IMG/VR virus record: IMGVR_UViG_2541047843_000008
Origin: a virus
Lineage: Duplodnaviria; Heunggongvirae; Uroviricota; Caudoviricetes
Strand: one strand, 5' to 3'
Length of the DNA: 40,690 nt
This document shows, piece by piece, positions 6,618 through 35,493 of this stretch. Below the pieces are notes generated by a model that worked only from the letters and a program-made list of their open reading frames with translations, searched no databases and was not told where the DNA came from. A program made the translations under genes and the position numbers. Position 1 is the first letter of the stretch, and every line of letters starts with the position of its first letter.

Positions 6618-6632
6618 TTACCTTTCAGGTGA
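6618..6632. promoter_or_regulatory. Operator-like palindrome variant TTACCTTTCAGGTGA
   Basis: One-mismatch copy of the recurring TTACCT-N3-AGGTAA palindrome, between the tailspike start and a plus-strand moron. Confidence 0.4.
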
Positions 6633-6967: not shown

Positions 6968-6998
6968 GGTTTGCAATTACCAAGTGGAGTGCTTATAT

Positions 6999-7013
6999 TT
7001 ACCTTTTCGGTAA
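6999..7013. promoter_or_regulatory. Operator-like palindrome TTACCTTTTCGGTAA
   Basis: Copy of recurring TTACC-N5-GGTAA palindrome downstream of the small ant-like gene. Confidence 0.45.
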
Positions 7014-7104
7014 ATTTACATCGCACTCCTCTTGTGCCATAGTAATCGGGCACTGGCAAAATCCAGTGCCGGGATTGGTCTCCCGGATTACTAAGTGGCG
7101 CATA

Positions 7105-7127
7105 CCACGCCAGACGTGGTTTTTTTA
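7105..7127 (+). terminator. Rho-independent terminator after the small antirepressor-like gene
   Basis: Stem CCACG / CGTGG with 5-nt loop followed by 8 T. Confidence 0.5.
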
Positions 7128-7284
7128 TGCGTATAGCACAGTCATGCCAGAATTATGGTGGGCTGAATGGGGGTCCGAAAGGACGCCGGTACCACTTAGG
7201 CCGGTAAGACCAACTCCGTTCAGTTCACCACCATCTGATTGGTCTCAGCGGTGGTGATGTAATTCGCTAAGTGGAGACGCCATC

Positions 7285-7941
7285 ATGAACGCTCAACTCA
7301 TCCCCGTATTCAACGGCACTATATCTAACGAAACAGCCCTACTTTGTAATGCCCGCGATCTGCACGCTTTTTTAGGTGTTAAAAAGGTGTTTGCAGCATG
7401 GATTACAAATCGCATATCAGAATACGAATTCATTGAAAATCAAGACTATATTTTGCTTTCCAATTTGGGAAAGCAAACATCTGGTAGAGGCGGCCACAAC
7501 CGCAAAGAGTACCACCTCACCCTTGATACAGCCAAAGAGCTGGCGATGGTCGAGCGTAACGAAAAAGGTCGCCAGGTGCGACGCTACTTCATTGAATGCG
7601 AGAAACGTTTAAGACAACAAGAAACAAAAGTGGAGAAGGTCTTGTCAGGCTTCATGCCCGCCATAATGGAGGCGATCAAGCTGGAAGACAAAAAAGAATA
7701 CAGCGCCCCACTGAAGCCCGGCTACCGCAGCCTGATTCATTCGCCGTCTGGTGTTCTCGGCCTGACGGAGAACTCACTGCTGATGAATCTGCTGAACCAG
7801 TTACAGGACGACGGGCACGACGTATCGGGCGCGGCGGCGGAGCTGACCACCATGTTCTGCTACATCGTCGGTGTGAGCAAATGCCTGCGTGATATCCAGA
7901 CCCACGCGGAGTACATCAACGACAAGGCAGGGTTCTTCTGA
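7285..7941 (+). CDS. Antirepressor-like protein (N-terminal Ant-type domain plus C-terminal domain shared with 6710..6967)
   Basis: N-terminus resembles phage antirepressor N-terminal domains as recalled; SD GGAGA upstream; C-terminal paralogy seen directly. Confidence 0.6.
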
Positions 7942-7949
7942 CGGGCGGT

Positions 7950-7972
7950 GGCACAGGGATGTGCCTTTAAAT
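7950..7972 (+). terminator. Putative terminator after antirepressor gene
   Basis: Stem GGCACA / TGTGCC with GGGA loop followed by TTTAAATAATT. Confidence 0.4.
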
Positions 7973-8013
7973 AATTCTGTACAGATTGCAGACCGGGGGT
8001 GAATAGCGTACTA

Positions 8014-8028
8014 TTACCTTAAAGGTAA
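8014..8028. promoter_or_regulatory. Operator palindrome TTACCTTAAAGGTAA upstream of the two-gene cassette
   Basis: Perfect TTACCT-N3-AGGTAA palindrome 43 nt upstream of the ATG at 8071. Confidence 0.5.
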
Positions 8029-8070
8029 ACCTGTTTTTATTTTATACCTGTAACTTACCGGAGATTAAAG

Positions 8071-8397
8071 ATGACAAAACTTGGATTCGTGATGAGAGGT
8101 CCGGTAAGAAGCGGAACTCATGCAAAGCGTAGCAAGAGTCGTATTTTTACTGGTAAGGTTGTAGCACGTAAATCAGCTATTGGCTCGTTCAATAGTGAAA
8201 ATGCGGCATTGCGCCATATTTTTATCAGCACAAAGCCAAGAGCATCCGCTGATGTGCATACAATGTCTATTCCTATCACAAAGAATATCAAGCGGATAAA
8301 AAAGCTCTCATCTGCAGAATCAAAAGAGATATCTTTCCGCCAGCTTAACTCATTAGAAACGCATATGAAGGAAGAGGAATTCGATGTTTTTGAGTGA
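8071..8397 (+). CDS. Hypothetical basic protein, first gene of unassigned two-gene cassette
   Basis: ATG with GGAG SD; K/R/S-rich N-terminus; AT-rich moron-like composition. Confidence 0.5.
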   Translation: MTKLGFVMRGPVRSGTHAKRSKSRIFTGKVVARKSAIGSFNSENAALRHIFISTKPRASADVHTMSIPITKNIKRIKKLSSAESKEISFRQLNSLETHMKEEEFDVFE

Positions 8398-8896
8398 GTA
8401 TAGCGGGAAGGTTATACCTACTGGTGAGTTTAAAACTGATGACTTTCTGATTTCGCTAAAAGATGCTTTTAAACAACACTGGCGTCATGGTCATCATCCT
8501 GATCTGGGAAAAGATACTCTTTTTGAAAGACCAGACGAAGTATTAGGCTTCCATCTCAGAAAGGTTCATGTCAATATTGGTGAATATGCATCATATTCAT
8601 ACTCATGTACTGAACAGTGTTGGGATGAGTGGTCATATGGATTGATTGATGAACAAGGAAATTACAGGCCAAAACCAACCAGTAACGCATATCTCATATA
8701 TGCAGTCAATGAAATAAGAGATGCAGCCTTACTAGCTTATTGGGACCCGCCCGCACACACCAAAGCTAACGCAAAAGTTTGGATGGATTCCGTATTGAAT
8801 TTCACAAAATTATTTCATGAACGAACGAATACAGCTCCACTTAGTAGAAATGTTTATCCGTGGGATTATTCGTACAAATCCAAAAAGCCTGCATAG
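8384..8896 (+). CDS. Hypothetical protein, second gene of cassette (His-rich segment HWRHGHHPD)
   Basis: ORF overlaps upstream gene end by 14 nt (translational coupling); no recognisable family. Confidence 0.5.
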   Translation: MFLSEYSGKVIPTGEFKTDDFLISLKDAFKQHWRHGHHPDLGKDTLFERPDEVLGFHLRKVHVNIGEYASYSYSCTEQCWDEWSYGLIDEQGNYRPKPTSNAYLIYAVNEIRDAALLAYWDPPAHTKANAKVWMDSVLNFTKLFHERTNTAPLSRNVYPWDYSYKSKKPA

Positions 8897-8977
8897 TAGT
8901 TTTTTATGGACGAAACAAAAGTCAGTGCTACACTCATTGACGCCACATTGAGGTGGCTTATAGATGGAAATGTCACA

Positions 8978-9139
8978 ATGAAAAAAGCATTTGCTGCACT
9001 GTTCGTTTTGTTGTCTCTGGTAGCTTCAACTCAGGCCTTTGCCGGTCGTTGTCAGCACGACAGCGACACTGCTGCTGACGGCTCACGCTGCGGTGGGCGT
9101 TCTGCGGATTCCCGCCCAGGCGGCGGTGGCATTCGTTAA
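8978..9139 (+). CDS. Small secreted Cys-containing peptide (signal peptide MKKAFAALFVLLSLVASTQAFA)
   Basis: Internal ATG begins a canonical signal peptide; about 30-aa mature part with 2 Cys and a Gly-rich tail. Confidence 0.4.
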   Translation: MKKAFAALFVLLSLVASTQAFAGRCQHDSDTAADGSRCGGRSADSRPGGGGIR

Positions 9140-9161
9140 AAACAAGGCCGCGAAAGCGGCC
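9136..9161 (-). terminator. Rho-independent terminator for the minus-strand membrane gene
   Basis: Stem GGCCGC / GCGGCC with GAAA loop; U-run on the minus-strand side (TTGTTTTT). Confidence 0.5.
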
Positions 9162-9170
9162 TGTGACATG

Positions 9171-9467
9171 TCACGTCCCTTTTCTGAATGATAGCCATTC
9201 GAAAAATGATGACATTCCACCGCAGACAATAGCAAAGATGATCCCACCAAAGAAGAGAAGGCCAGCCTGCCACCACTCCCACCGCCATACATCCACAGCG
9301 CCAACCATACCAACAATCGCTCCAACAAATGGAATATAGCTCACGATGAAAGCAATGGGGGCTGCAATTATCCAGTGCAATCCCCACCATGATTCAAGCC
9401 CAGCCATAATTGCTGCCAACTGAAAAAGACCAACGACGATATAAACAATGAATCCTATAGCTTGCAT
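9171..9467 (-). CDS. Multi-pass inner-membrane protein immediately after the ejection-protein genes; candidate superinfection-exclusion (SieA-position) protein
   Basis: Three or four hydrophobic helices, Trp-rich; start taken at ATG preceded by AGGTG SD. Confidence 0.5.
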   Translation of the reverse strand: MQAIGFIVYIVVGLFQLAAIMAGLESWWGLHWIIAAPIAFIVSYIPFVGAIVGMVGAVDVWRWEWWQAGLLFFGGIIFAIVCGGMSSFFEWLSFRKGT

Positions 9468-9663
9468 GTAGTCACCTAATTTACCCAGTAAAAATAAGAG
9501 GCCTCCCCTCAATAAGGCTTGCAACAAGAACTACTCCCTGCACAACAAAGATGAACCAGCAAATAGCTTGAGTCTGAGGGTTAAGAAAATATTTGTAGCG
9601 GTCAATAAATAACAATCCACCAGAAATTATCACACTCAAAATAATTAAAAACACAACACTTCC

Positions 9664-12138
9664 TTATTGCGGAGTGACATCCTGTGGTCGCCACCAGTAT
9701 GTCTGGTTAAACTCTTTCTTCGAACGTTGCTCCATTTTACGCAAATAACCTGGTGAAAAATACTCCTGCATCTGGTTAAAGATCATGTGATCGAGAGCCG
9801 CCTTTAAGTACCAGAGATTCGCACCTGGCATCAGACCTTTCCCCAGCTTAACCAGATCACCACCAGTCTGCTCATTCTTCCCTTCCACAGCATTTAACGG
9901 TATGCCCTGAGCAATCTTCACTACGTCATCAACCAGACCAGCTACCGGGCCAAGCATCGACGCCAGCGCGCCGCTTCCGTACCTAGTGTGATCTGACAAT
10001 AAAAAGTCACCGTAAAGGCCAAGACCACCACCTTTCAGTAGAGCACCAAGCCAAAATTTAGCAGCATCTTCTCCTGTCATCTCGCGAGGATTACGACCAG
10101 ACGCAAGGTCGTTAAGTTGCTGCGACAAAGCGCCAAGAATGGTCGTACTGGCAATAAACGTCGCAATATATGCCGCACGCCCACCAGCCGACGGCATACC
10201 CATAGCGCGTGACCAGTGACGCATAACCACCGAGATAGGGAACGATTTAAACAGGAAAACACTTCTCGTTAATTCACCTTTCCATGTTCCACGCTGAATA
10301 CCAGAACCGGTTATCAGTTGCTCACGTGCACCCGGTGTAATAACAGCCATATCAACTTCTTCAGTTACGGCACCGAGCAGTTTACGCATTGCCTCAAATT
10401 TCACGCGTTCAGGCTCACCAAGATGTTTAACTGCTGAATCAGGGATACGCATAATGCTTTCCGGTGTCAGCATCGTATTATTACCGTTCCCCCAGTCCTC
10501 CTGTTGCGCCAGCTTCCATACGCTCCAGTCTGTGTCAGTAATCCCTTTGCTTTTCAGGATACGAAAATCAGAATCATCGAGGCTACGAAGGTCTGGTGTC
10601 CGTGACACTACTTCTCCCAGGCTTCCCATCATGGTTACGCCATAGGCGCGCTTGTGCGCATCTGACCATGCTGTAAGCCCACTGGCACGCATTACCGCCG
10701 TTGCAGCCCAACGAGACACAGACGGCCCCATATTATCCATCGCCCAGCGGTTAACGCTGCCAAGTAGAGATTCCATCGCCAGACCAGCGCGGCGCGCCCG
10801 CGCAAGTTCTGTACGGTTCGTTGGGTCCATAGCTTCAAGCTGGTTGCGGAATAACTGGTTCATTGGAAGGTTGGTAACCTTCGCAGACAGATACATGGTT
10901 CCAAGATCAGAGAACGATGACAGCAACGCGGATCCGAGTCTGCTGGCAACCAGCCAGTTGCGGATATTGTCAGACCATCGCGCGATGTGCGGATTCGCTA
11001 CAGGCTGTGTCTTTCCGGAAATAAAGTTGTACAGATTCTCTGTGTTGTTCGCCAGCCGCTCGACTTTACCGGTTTTACTCGGGTTAGCTGTTGCCGTTTC
11101 TGCCTTCACCTGATCAAGAAGAGAGCGGAAAACATGATCGGGGTTTGGGCCATATGTTTCCACCAGTGCAATATCTTTACTGATACCTTCCAGGTGACCG
11201 ACCATGATTTCCCATAGAGAGCGATCGCCATAAAGTTGCTGATATTGCAGATAGGAATCTGCATCTTTGAAATGTATCTGTCGTGATGCATTACCCCGGT
11301 TAGCACGTGCGCCGGAAATTCGCATTCCGGTATCAGTAAGCTTATTCAGCCCACCAGTAGCGATCGTGTTATAAGCCTCTCCAAGAAATGCAGACAACTC
11401 GGCATCGTTCATCAGTTGTCCATCGACTCGGGTATAATATTTGCGATCCAGCTTACCTATAACATCGCTAACCCACTTATCCTTTGATACCGCCCCAACC
11501 TTTTCCATAGAATGATGTTGAGGGAGCCCCCAGTTTTCGAGATAGCCAATGTCCCCACCAGCATCATTAAACCGGCGGCGCAGTAGCTCTGTCACTTCTC
11601 TCCACGCCTTAGCACCTTTTCTTGCTTTAGCATTGCCAGTATTTTGCCCTCGCATTTCATATACCAGGTCACGCACGCCAGCTTCATCTTCAAACAGGCC
11701 AAAAAAGCGAGGATCAACTGCTTCAAATGCCTCCTGCAATTGACTCAATGCATAATCACGAGTGGCTTTTGTTCTGGATTCAACAGAGAGGAAATTCGAT
11801 TTACCGTCTGCATTAAAAGCAATAGTACGGTTAAGAGCGCCAAGTTTCCCATCAGCCCCTTGATAGCTATTGATAAATTTATCCAATCTCTGACGTGCGG
11901 CTATAGTGAGGGCCACACGACGTTTCTTTAATGCCGCTTCTCGCTGTAATTCTTCAGATGCCAATTGTGCTGCTCGATATAGCCGCTCTGATTCGGAAAG
12001 TTGTCGCCACGACATCGGGTCATCACGAGCAATGGAGCGCATATTTCGATAAATGCGGTCTTCAATGTTCTGTATTTCTCGCGCCGTTAACATGCGCTGC
12101 GCCGCCTGCTGGACCGCTTGTATACATTCCTGTCTCAT
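9664..12138 (-). CDS. Internal virion/ejection protein (large, T7 gp15/gp16 position)
   Basis: 824 aa, translationally coupled in a run of large genes between the tail tubular genes and the tailspike. Confidence 0.65.
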   Translation of the reverse strand: MRQECIQAVQQAAQRMLTAREIQNIEDRIYRNMRSIARDDPMSWRQLSESERLYRAAQLASEELQREAALKKRRVALTIAARQRLDKFINSYQGADGKLGALNRTIAFNADGKSNFLSVESRTKATRDYALSQLQEAFEAVDPRFFGLFEDEAGVRDLVYEMRGQNTGNAKARKGAKAWREVTELLRRRFNDAGGDIGYLENWGLPQHHSMEKVGAVSKDKWVSDVIGKLDRKYYTRVDGQLMNDAELSAFLGEAYNTIATGGLNKLTDTGMRISGARANRGNASRQIHFKDADSYLQYQQLYGDRSLWEIMVGHLEGISKDIALVETYGPNPDHVFRSLLDQVKAETATANPSKTGKVERLANNTENLYNFISGKTQPVANPHIARWSDNIRNWLVASRLGSALLSSFSDLGTMYLSAKVTNLPMNQLFRNQLEAMDPTNRTELARARRAGLAMESLLGSVNRWAMDNMGPSVSRWAATAVMRASGLTAWSDAHKRAYGVTMMGSLGEVVSRTPDLRSLDDSDFRILKSKGITDTDWSVWKLAQQEDWGNGNNTMLTPESIMRIPDSAVKHLGEPERVKFEAMRKLLGAVTEEVDMAVITPGAREQLITGSGIQRGTWKGELTRSVFLFKSFPISVVMRHWSRAMGMPSAGGRAAYIATFIASTTILGALSQQLNDLASGRNPREMTGEDAAKFWLGALLKGGGLGLYGDFLLSDHTRYGSGALASMLGPVAGLVDDVVKIAQGIPLNAVEGKNEQTGGDLVKLGKGLMPGANLWYLKAALDHMIFNQMQEYFSPGYLRKMEQRSKKEFNQTYWWRPQDVTPQ

Positions 12139-34389: not shown

Positions 34390-34620
34390 TCATGAGTAGA
34401 AGAAGTATGCCAGTTCTGCTTTTGAGCGCAGCCATTGTCTTGTTTTACAGGCTTTAAAAAGCCCATTCATCAATACCTTACCTGGCATTTTGCGCTTGCC
34501 TGTTAAGTGAGTCTGGATATAGTGACTCGTCGTTCCGGCTTCCTGTGCGAAGGCTTCACGCTCATCCGGAGTAAGTGCAAGCCAGTGCTTTTTGAAATCG
34601 AAATGTCCGTTATCGCTCAT
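34390..34620 (-). CDS. Cro-like HTH regulator
   Basis: 76 aa, HTH-like segment, divergent from the repressor gene across the operator cluster. Confidence 0.55.
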   Translation of the reverse strand: MSDNGHFDFKKHWLALTPDEREAFAQEAGTTSHYIQTHLTGKRKMPGKVLMNGLFKACKTRQWLRSKAELAYFFYS

Positions 34621-34656: not shown

Positions 34657-34720
34657 TCACCCATAAGGTAACAAAAATCAAGGATAGTTACCTATGAGGT
34701 GCATTTACCTGTTGGGTAAT
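34657..34720. promoter_or_regulatory. Immunity-region operator cluster: three TTACC-N5-GGTAA-type palindromes between the divergent Cro-like and repressor genes
   Basis: TCACCCATAAGGTAA, TTACCTATGAGGTGC, TTACCTGTTGGGTAA at about 34657-34671, 34688-34702, 34706-34720. Confidence 0.55.
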
Positions 34721-34774: not shown

Positions 34775-35359
34775 ATGAAAAGTATCCAGGACGTCCGCAG
34801 GCAAAATCTCAACGACTTGATCGACCGTGAATTCAATGGTGTTCAGACGCGGATGGCAGAAAAACTTGGAACTCAGGCAAATCTGGTAAACCGCTGGGCT
34901 CTTGGCAAGAAGGTTATCGGCGACCAGGTTGCACGAAAAATTGAAGCTGCCGCCAATAAACCCCGTAACTGGCTTGATATTGATCGTTCGCTTTCTCAGG
35001 AGGGTTTTCAGCCTGTCGGCCCGAGCGATATAGGTCAGCTGGCGGCTCACAATCTGGAACGCTGGATGAGCGAAAGCCGCGACCTTTCAACACAGGGAAA
35101 ACTTCACCGCGCATCCGGCGTCGCCCAGGTGACAATCAGCCGCCTGTTAAACAATGAGGTCAGCGTTTCCATTTCCACCCTGGAGAATGTTGCATCCGCA
35201 TTCGGGCGTCACGGATATGAACTACTGATTCACCCGCACGACCCTGCGACTATCAACTATGACCGCTCACGCTACGCATTGTTACCCGAAACCGAGAAAG
35301 CAAAGATCGAAAGTTACATTGAATTTGTCATCAACCAGAACGAAAAAAGCAAACAATAA
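34775..35359 (+). CDS. Repressor candidate with two XRE-type HTH domains and no LexA-like autocleavage domain
   Basis: HTH-like segments VQTRMAEKLGTQANLVNRWALGKK and LHRASGVAQVTISRLLNNEVSVSISTLENVASAFG; own terminator downstream. Confidence 0.6.
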   Translation: MKSIQDVRRQNLNDLIDREFNGVQTRMAEKLGTQANLVNRWALGKKVIGDQVARKIEAAANKPRNWLDIDRSLSQEGFQPVGPSDIGQLAAHNLERWMSESRDLSTQGKLHRASGVAQVTISRLLNNEVSVSISTLENVASAFGRHGYELLIHPHDPATINYDRSRYALLPETEKAKIESYIEFVINQNEKSKQ

Positions 35360-35416: not shown

Positions 35417-35493
35417 TTACCTTACGGGTAATTTTTTTAACTCATATCTATTGACACCAAACCAAATAAGCATAATTATTACCTCAACGGTAA
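35417..35493. promoter_or_regulatory. Early (PL-like) promoter region with TTGACA flanked by two operator palindromes
   Basis: TTACCTTACGGGTAA (about 35417-35431), TTGACA (about 35451-35456), AT-rich -10 candidates, TTACCTCAACGGTAA (about 35479-35493). Confidence 0.55.

Follow-up and report, generated by a model that had tools for sequence, protein, structure and literature searches.

A putative YafO-type toxin-antitoxin cassette, probably under phage repressor control, in an exchangeable slot of an Escherichia coli Uetakevirus prophage

Between the tail fiber gene and the gene for a large virion protein of an Escherichia coli prophage, three small genes follow one another on the strand opposite to both, behind a palindrome, and raise the question of what they encode, which of them travel together, and what controls them. 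The DNA is IMG/VR record IMGVR_UViG_2541047843_000008, whose full length of 40,690 nucleotides (nt) we refer to as the window; by sequence comparison it is an epsilon15/phiV10-like Uetakevirus of E. coli. RefSeq calls the same three open reading frames (ORFs), encoding 108, 170, and 53 amino acids (aa). A sequence-only reading of the locus had correctly placed them on the strand opposite the structural genes and had described a palindrome, an unassigned two-gene cassette, and a secreted mini-protein; it proposed a small module under repressor control, with toxin-antitoxin (TA), anti-defense, or superinfection-related functions. The first of these is now the best reading, since the locus combines a YafO-family homolog of the RelE fold with an obligate, overlapping upstream partner. 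A type II TA pair is the most likely molecular mechanism, and we consider it fairly probable that positions 8030-8899 constitute a mobile two-gene cassette of this kind in an accessory slot of the phage (Table 1).

The toxin assignment begins with the 170-aa protein, which RefSeq annotates as a YafO family toxin, so that the earlier statement that no family could be recognized for any of the three products is wrong for this one. The Pfam model YafO_toxin (PF13957) aligns to it over profile positions 7 to 100 of 101 (19.7 bits, E = 9.5e-4); 11 of 12 family members match the same model (best E = 2e-5), and a precomputed match is present in some relatives. We also compared profiles with hhalign, using 34 phage-type sequences (the 170-aa clade, the 181-aa clade of phage TL-2011b, and intermediates, with no YafO included) on one side and 26 canonical YafO proteins of 131 to 134 aa on the other. 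The two aligned over 109 columns with a probability of 86.9% and an E value of 4.1e-6, a moderate rather than overwhelming result, and the phage proteins carry a Cys/Trp-rich insertion of ~25 residues (YASYSYSCTEQCWDEWSYGLIDEQGNYR) and a C-terminal extension. Eight residues of the 170-aa protein are common to canonical YafO (G36, P39, G42, D44, H62, S100, Y106, and H125), of which G36, G42, H62, S100, Y106, and H125 are invariant across the 170/181-aa family, P39 is nearly so, and D44 is nearly invariant once canonical YafO is included. An AlphaFold2 model computed from 60 sequences is confident (predicted local distance difference test [pLDDT] 90.8, predicted template modeling score 0.86) and has a RelE-like alpha/beta fold. 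The protein contains 8 His, including those of the HWRHGHHPD stretch, and 6 Trp; of the "several Cys and Trp" described earlier, the Trp are there, and Cys number only two.

By profile homology and predicted fold, though not by Pfam membership, we place the 170-aa protein in the BECR/RelE fold as a divergent member of its YafO branch, and it most likely inhibits translation by mRNA cleavage, as the conservation of the His, Asp, and Tyr residues in common with YafO suggests. PF13957 is one of 13 BECR-fold type II toxin families and has the gene order antitoxin then toxin (PMC11980606), and YafO is an mRNA-degrading translation inhibitor (PMC8546651, PMC11980606) whose dependence on the ribosome is debated (PMC8546651). 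The closest well-known comparison is YafN-YafO of the K-12 dinB operon, in which an antitoxin gene likewise precedes and overlaps the toxin gene; YafO shares with the phage toxin the motifs G-x-x-P-D, G-(K/R)-D, H-x-H, and P-x-x-H (profile E = 4e-6) but has 132 rather than 170 aa, the difference lying in the ~25-residue insertion and the C-terminal tail. The two systems differ in the antitoxin, which in YafN is of the Phd/YefM type and in the phage pair is not, and in their setting, the phage pair being prophage borne behind a putative phage-repressor operator. More distant are the ribosome-dependent RelE-superfamily mRNases HigB2 of Vibrio cholerae (5mje/5jaa) and HigB1 of Mycobacterium tuberculosis (7nbu), with 12 to 13% identity and Foldseek scores that are not significant; HigBA modules have the reverse order, toxin first (PMC11980606).

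The second line of evidence is the constancy with which the toxin gene is paired. The genes for the 108-aa and 170-aa proteins overlap by 14 nt (ATGTTTTTGAGTGA), with a Shine-Dalgarno-like AGAGGA sequence upstream, in agreement with the earlier description of a coupled pair with a very basic first product. At all six loci reached through homologs of the 108-aa protein (41 to 51% identical), which include one P22-like prophage and one locus with quite different neighbors, the gene for the 170-aa protein comes next with the same 14-nt overlap. Among 78 IMG/VR loci with YafO-like toxins we distinguished at least five types of upstream partner (types A to E, 59 to ~150 aa; the 108-aa protein is of type A), each tied to its own toxin clade, and the 14-nt overlap is kept in every type A and type B locus, those from IMG/VR included. 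Toxin and partner identities covary closely (Mantel r = 0.93; reached by 0 of 2,000 permutations), and overlap, pairing, and covariation are all kept over a range of 30 to 100% toxin identity. The partners also have something in common: an alignment of the last ~36 residues across all types needs almost no gaps. A hidden Markov model (HMM) of the type A C terminus, searched against 6,502 ORF segments, recovered type E as its best nonself match (E = 0.019), followed by type B and the partners at loci L057 and L041, and a pooled partner HMM recovered L041 at an E value of 2e-7 and L057 at 2e-3 when these were held out. By alignment and profile search, a C-terminal module of ~36 aa is common to at least five otherwise dissimilar partner types.

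Some prophages carry two modules with different partner types (L019, L023, and L041), which argues for insulated pairs; the window carries one module only. In these three, the second YafO-like toxin, 32 to 46% identical, is encoded on the opposite strand of the island (L019, ~1478-1924; L023, ~1527-2012; L041, ~1683-2150; all on the minus strand), and that second strand also bears a different, type C-like partner ORF (...ISRRMFARTAEDMAQELYDDAE) in L019 and L023.

The best reading of the 108-aa protein is that of a cognate antitoxin belonging to a modular family not yet described. It has an isoelectric point (pI) of 10.6 and 21 Lys and Arg residues; its first 35 residues hold 10 of these and no acidic residue, and its C terminus is acidic. 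The family conserves an N-terminal MTKLGFVMRG with a basic tract and a C terminus (ELSFRMLNSLEDRMKEEEFDAFE; helix module of the 108-aa protein, ...SFRQLNSLETHMKEEEFDVFE), and the middle is variable and rich in indels. In the AlphaFold2 model (pLDDT 56), disorder prevails except for a moderately confident helix at residues 89 to 107. PHROG 5933, for which no function is given there, is its only PHROG match, and an exhaustive HMMER profile search of 1.84 billion representatives returned 14 proteins (9 at E < 1e-10), which are its own narrow family and three marginal matches. We infer that the 108-aa protein neutralizes the toxin, most likely by direct binding through the conserved C-terminal amphipathic helix module, as modeling and conservation suggest. 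A resemblance between its C terminus (EEEFDVFE) and that of YafN (DDDFNDFKE) was considered and rejected, as HMM and hhalign comparisons both fail; true YafN proteins that we fetched match Pfam PF02604 (Phd/YefM), and the 108-aa protein does not.

Comparison with related phages delimits what is exchanged. In blastn alignments, homology to phages TL-2011b and phiv142-3 stops at 8029/8030 and restarts at 8900, and because of these breaks we define the exchangeable cassette as the two overlapping genes only. Between the same breakpoints, TL-2011b has a 59-aa ORF followed by a gene for a 181-aa "YafO family toxin," and phiv142-3 has two small unrelated ORFs and no toxin; Pfam holds no family for the partner proteins of either cassette. 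The TL-2011b pair (gp45/gp44) and other YafO-like cassettes of enterobacterial podovirus prophages (PHROG 1651) lie in the same slot, where flanks, promoter, and operator are also the same, and encode homologous toxins and partners that carry the same C-terminal module. The TL-2011b toxin is 33% identical to that of the window (E = 2e-27), and its 59-aa partner is otherwise unrelated and has a different overlap geometry. The higher AT content noticed earlier holds for 8030-8899, whose GC fraction of 0.393 against 0.488 for the window is in the lowest 0.4% of 870-bp windows, and it does not hold for the GC-rich 53-aa gene (0.568). When we queried the stretch 7950-9200 in 5,426 complete E. coli genomes, 535 matched at least part of it and 69 all of it, cassette included; a scan of species-representative genomes yielded only 2 loci. 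The setting had been likened to that of P22-like prophages, and here the phage itself is a Uetakevirus; a P22-like prophage (L006) nevertheless carries the same cassette.

The 53-aa gene, which had been listed together with the pair, is a resident of the slot rather than of the cassette: its product is identical in TL-2011b (gp43) and phiv142-3 (Orf11), where it stands beside other cassettes and, in the latter, without a toxin. The description of it as a signal-peptide-bearing Cys peptide stands, the N terminus (MKKAFAALFVLLSLVASTQAFA, then G) having by inspection the form of a classical signal peptide, to be cleaved at an AxA site, and the mature part (GRCQHDSDTAADGSRCGGRSADSRPGGGGIR) being 31 aa long and Gly-rich with 2 Cys. 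The protein matches PHROG 14503, "membrane associated protein," in the moron category, whereas NCBIfam and PADLOC yielded no meaningful match for it or for the other two proteins; HEMP4 and EC.W1-9 match the DNA of this stretch as well. A terminator scan found no terminator-like site on the plus strand between 8896 and 8978, and the 53-aa gene is probably cotranscribed with the cassette. The hairpin at 9145-9162 was scored by the scan on the minus strand, with 7 pairs of which 6 are GC, and an A-run precedes it on the plus strand; from this arrangement it is likely a bidirectional terminator. We propose that homology arms for cassette swapping would be provided by the shared promoter and operator at the left end and by the 53-aa gene at the right.

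The palindrome noted upstream of the pair is present at 8014-8028, and its motif, TTACC-N5-GGTAA, recurs in the window in 13 copies (9 exact and 4 with one mismatch) compared with 0.56 expected, a number reached in 0 of 100 shuffles. The sites begin at 6618, 6999, 8014, 25733, 28880, 28898, 32362, 32424, 34320, 34657, 34688, 34705, 35417, and 35479; the count of 13 refers to copies with at most one mismatch, and 34688 is an additional copy with two. All of them are intergenic or at gene starts; the terminase small-subunit gene and a resolvase-like gene, for example, have copies immediately 5' of them. A layout recurs in which a -35 element like TTGCA(G/T/A) is followed by a 17-nt spacer and a -10 element that shares its final T with the start of the palindrome; besides the cassette, it is found at the ant promoter, P_ant (6970-6999; 9 of 12 consensus positions), at 35479 (10 of 12), where the palindrome abuts a strong TTGACA-17-AATTAT promoter of plus-strand early genes, and at related loci such as L034 and L005. 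The motif has the properties of an operator, being an enriched, repeated palindrome that is clustered at the immunity region and overlaps promoters.

The gene at the center of that cluster encodes a 194-aa helix-turn-helix protein; a region of phage vB_EcoP_ZX5 that carries the annotation "repressor" matches it with 99.5% identity. When the ORF21 repressor of ZX5 was overexpressed, the lytic cycle was reported to be blocked, and the same study did not define the repressor's operators (PMC9782041). We take the two genes to be the same, and our literature search found no paper that defines the operator of epsilon15 or phiV10. We infer that TTACC-N5-GGTAA is the operator bound by the 194-aa repressor. 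Because the palindromes cluster around the repressor gene and abut -10 elements, the cassette is probably repressor controlled, and it is probably repressed in lysogens together with ant; the repressor control suggested by the sequence-only reading thus gains support, with the clusters lying on both sides of the repressor gene. The scattered, intergenic distribution of 13 copies of one motif resembles that of the "stoperators" of mycobacteriophage L5, where many copies of the gp71 repressor-site motif are likewise intergenic and scattered. Because the sites in the window are palindromic and several abut -10 hexamers, in contrast to L5, promoter occlusion rather than an orientation-dependent block to elongation is suggested.

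The palindrome, with which the earlier description of the module began, is excluded from the cassette by the homology break at 8029/8030: it lies in the conserved left flank that is common to phages with other cassettes. It is found upstream of the cassette of phiv142-3 as well, which has no toxin, and we take it to be a feature of the slot and not of the TA pair. Upstream of cassettes at related loci, the half-sites are conserved, the spacer is variable, and the flanks are unrelated. A second palindrome, TCAAC-N5-GTTGA, comes after the TTACC operator, ~20 to 35 nt upstream of the partner start codon, at type B loci and at a single type A locus, L028 (the loci concerned are L028, L034, L035, and L037); it is degenerate or absent in the window (8030-8055) and might be the TA pair's own operator. 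Type E loci (L042, L044, L045, L046, and L050) have TGACG-N4-CGTCA ~35 nt upstream of the partner gene and are without any TTACC-N5-GGTAA site, a difference that fits a backbone with a different immunity specificity, as far as the motifs indicate. A possible LexA box (CTG...CAG at 7977-7991) was rejected by inspection, as its spacer is 9 nt instead of 10.

Directly upstream of the cassette region lies an AntA-domain antirepressor gene (ant, recognized by Pfam and PHROG), and the order there is the ant promoter, a c4 a1/b1 target match, isrK, C4 RNA, and then ant. On these Rfam and domain matches, positions 7037-7235 together with ant are a P1/P7-type immI unit in a Uetakevirus. As in the immI regions of P1/P7 and P22, c4 RNA, a1/b1 targets, and isrK precede an antirepressor gene, and the region lies on the opposite strand between a tail fiber gene and large virion-protein genes; P22 has immI and sieA in the corresponding position. 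Unlike in those phages, the promoters in the window carry the motif that surrounds the primary repressor gene, no mnt or arc gene was found in the examined part of the window, and the TA cassette is an add-on downstream of ant. A small plus-strand ORF at 6629-6967 matches PHROG 450 and 15539, as does the C-terminal part of Ant (~residues 135 to 216); it is a copy of that domain standing alone, with the one-mismatch operator at 6618 in front of it. A hairpin (GGCACA-GGGA-TGTGCC, 7950-7965) followed by TTTAAATAATT comes directly after the ant stop codon and is conserved in both TL-2011b and phiv142-3. A promoter-like match at 7948-7975 overlaps the hairpin, which might act as a weak terminator between ant and the promoter of the cassette. 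On the other side, the minus-strand genes for a 118-aa and a 57-aa protein converge on the cassette terminator and could encode sie-like membrane proteins. No Rfam family matched inside 8014-9139, and no tandem repeats were found in 7900-9300.

Table 1. Features of the accessory slot and of the immunity region in the window (a dot marks features without a strand).
Feature	Positions	Strand	Remarks
Tail fiber, 1039 aa	3394-6513	-	Large gene flanking the slot
Second perfect operator copy	6999-7013	.	Abuts the -10 of the ant promoter (TTGCAA-17-TATATT, 6971-6999)
c4 a1/b1 target match	7037-7089		39.9 bits, below the Rfam threshold of 46.7
isrK	7050-7126		67.7 bits, above the Rfam gathering score
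C4 antisense RNA	7151-7235		61.2 bits, above the Rfam gathering score
AntA-domain antirepressor (ant)	7285-7941	+	Pfam/PHROG; directly upstream of the cassette region
Candidate sigma-70 promoter of the cassette	7986-8014	+	TTGCAG (7986-7991), 17-nt spacer, TACTAT (8009-8014)
Putative operator palindrome, TTACCTT-A-AAGGTAA (TTACC-TTAAA-GGTAA)	8014-8028	.	Perfect copy; abuts the cassette -10
Exchangeable AT-rich cassette	8030-8899	+	Limits of nonhomology to TL-2011b and phiv142-3
108-aa basic protein, putative antitoxin (partner type A)	8071-8397	+	
170-aa YafO-family (RelE/BECR-fold) putative mRNA endoribonuclease toxin	8384-8896	+	
53-aa signal-peptide protein	8978-9139	+	Conserved resident of the slot, outside the cassette
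GC-rich hairpin, AGGCCGC-TTTC-GCGGCCT	9145-9162	.	Between the converging plus-strand unit and the minus-strand 118-aa gene
118-aa membrane protein	9171-9527	-	PHROG 3075, function not given by PHROG
57-aa small hydrophobic protein	9481-9654	-	Between the cassette and the 824-aa gene
824-aa virion protein	9664-12138	-	Large gene flanking the slot
cro-like gene	34390-34620	-	Divergent from the repressor gene
O_R-like triple (34657, 34688, 34705)	34657-34719	.	Between the divergent cro-like gene and the repressor gene
194-aa helix-turn-helix repressor	34775-35359	+	Pfam HTH_3; PHROG transcriptional regulator/repressor families
O_L-like pair (35417, 35479)	35417-35493	.	Downstream of the repressor gene

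Several observations weigh against reading the cassette as a TA pair. The 170-aa protein falls below the PF13957 gathering threshold (19.7 versus 25 bits), matches no NCBIfam model, and has no significant BLASTP similarity to K-12 YafO (E = 1.6). In the Foldseek search recommended by the sequence-only reading, the confident model of the 170-aa protein gave nothing significant in the PDB and BFVD (best PDB match HigB2, E = 0.6), and the model of the 108-aa protein is of low confidence, too poor for a fold search. When the PDB was searched by sequence with the toxin profile, all that came back were spurious W-repeat matches to fucose lectins (E > 0.3). The partner is basic overall and not acidic, it has no Pfam, NCBIfam, or PADLOC family, and no DNA-binding or antitoxin domain was recognized in it; partner HMMs found none of the five YafN proteins among the 6,502 segments, and hhalign gave a probability below 1% for partner versus YafN. 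The cassette promoter is weak and was missed by the promoter scan because only 7 of 12 consensus positions match. The operator, which as noted also precedes a cassette without a toxin, is not TA specific, so a palindrome upstream of the pair does not demonstrate classical antitoxin autoregulation. Finally, a labile antitoxin shut off by the repressor when lysogeny is established would harm new lysogens, which fits awkwardly with the TA reading.

Taken at face value, the subthreshold Pfam score, the large insertion, the nonsignificant Foldseek result, and a basic partner lacking an antitoxin signature could mean that the locus is not a functional TA system at all, the 170-aa protein being a dead or repurposed RelE-fold domain (for example, one that binds ribosomes or RNA) and the 108-aa protein merely a cotranscribed nucleic-acid binder. 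We regard this as very improbable, since the 170/181-aa family strictly conserves residues that it has in common with YafO and the overlap, pairing, and covariation are maintained across so wide a range of toxin divergence.

Under the TA reading, transcription would probably start at the weak promoter, whose -10 element abuts the operator; the 194-aa repressor, as we envisage it, would bind there and hold the cassette down in the lysogen together with ant, with expression early after infection or induction. Translation would begin with the 108-aa protein and reach the 170-aa toxin by translational coupling through the overlap, the YafO-type mRNase would be kept inactive by the partner's C-terminal helix, and the transcript would probably run on through the 53-aa gene to the hairpin at 9145-9162; the model assigns no role to the basic N-terminal part of the 108-aa protein. 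The role of such a pair could be exclusion or abortive infection, prophage stabilization, or early-lytic RNA turnover, and it is harder to assign because of the apparent repressor control. Addiction through a labile antitoxin fits poorly because the shutoff at the establishment of lysogeny would free the toxin. The apparent control also fits poorly with a constitutive abortive-infection module that protects lysogens, and it fits a function early after infection or induction.

A phage-deployed enzyme would suit that timing. The cassette might encode an early-lytic RNase, a repressor-controlled RelE-fold protein that degrades host or early phage mRNA or acts in lytic exclusion, with the largely disordered 108-aa protein as its inhibitor, stoichiometric timer, or specificity factor. 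A comparable case, by analogy only, is RegB of T4, an early endoribonuclease of that phage whose fold is RelE/YoeB-like. Here the immunity-region operator abuts the cassette -10 element exactly as it does at P_ant and 35479, the cassette lies directly downstream of the c4-RNA/ant immI-like unit, a search of PADLOC-DB 2.0 gave no match at E <= 1 for any of the seven island proteins, and a repressor-silenced classical TA system with a labile antitoxin would be costly for new lysogens. If this were true, the partners, with their shared C-terminal module and interchangeable N termini, would be a new modular class of regulator of RelE-fold nucleases that phages themselves deploy. We nevertheless think it unlikely: selfish TA systems are typified by such a gene order, overlap, and codiversifying partner and by the occurrence within one prophage of two modules whose partners differ, and the promoter may be leaky or supplemented by read-through.

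To about the same low degree we credit a defense or exclusion module expressed in the lysogen, in which a TA pair produced constitutively at a low level would abort infection by heterologous phages once the antitoxin is depleted. The company that the cassette keeps would suit such a role, since the slot also holds small membrane proteins (such as that of 118 aa) and the moron-class secreted peptide, and the region is cargo of high AT content that is exchanged horizontally; contributions of RelE/ParE-superfamily TA modules to phage defense are documented (PMC11980606). Against this, the placement of the operator predicts repression in lysogens, and a lysogen-protecting "moron" role is less obvious if the repressor shuts the promoter there. 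The absence of PADLOC matches counts against defense as well, and nothing we found supports the anti-defense role proposed earlier. Our literature searches (by RefSeq accession, by YafO with prophage or defense, and by "YafO-like") returned no study of this phage YafO-like subfamily and no experimental report on it.

A mobile type II TA pair therefore remains our preferred reading of the cassette, and parts of it are familiar: the toxin is already labeled in RefSeq, and TA pairs with unfamiliar antitoxins are common. The novelty lies in the family of partners and the module common to them, in the precise junctions of the cassette, and in its apparent connection to the operator network of the phage repressor. 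The YafO family is small, with about 1K members in Pfam (PMC11980606), and the cassette represents a widespread prophage-borne branch of it whose partner proteins have neither name nor family in the libraries and literature that we searched. In annotation, "putative YafO-type antitoxin" could be used for the 108-aa family and its relatives, the junctions at 8030/8900 mark a cassette-exchange site usable for comparative or engineering work, and a candidate operator map for phiV10/ZX5-type phages has been obtained. The partners appear to be built from one shared C-terminal module and interchangeable N-terminal parts. The apparent wiring of the pair to the prophage repressor, instead of or besides autoregulation by the antitoxin, bears on when TA systems carried by prophages are expressed and on which party, at that time, would benefit.

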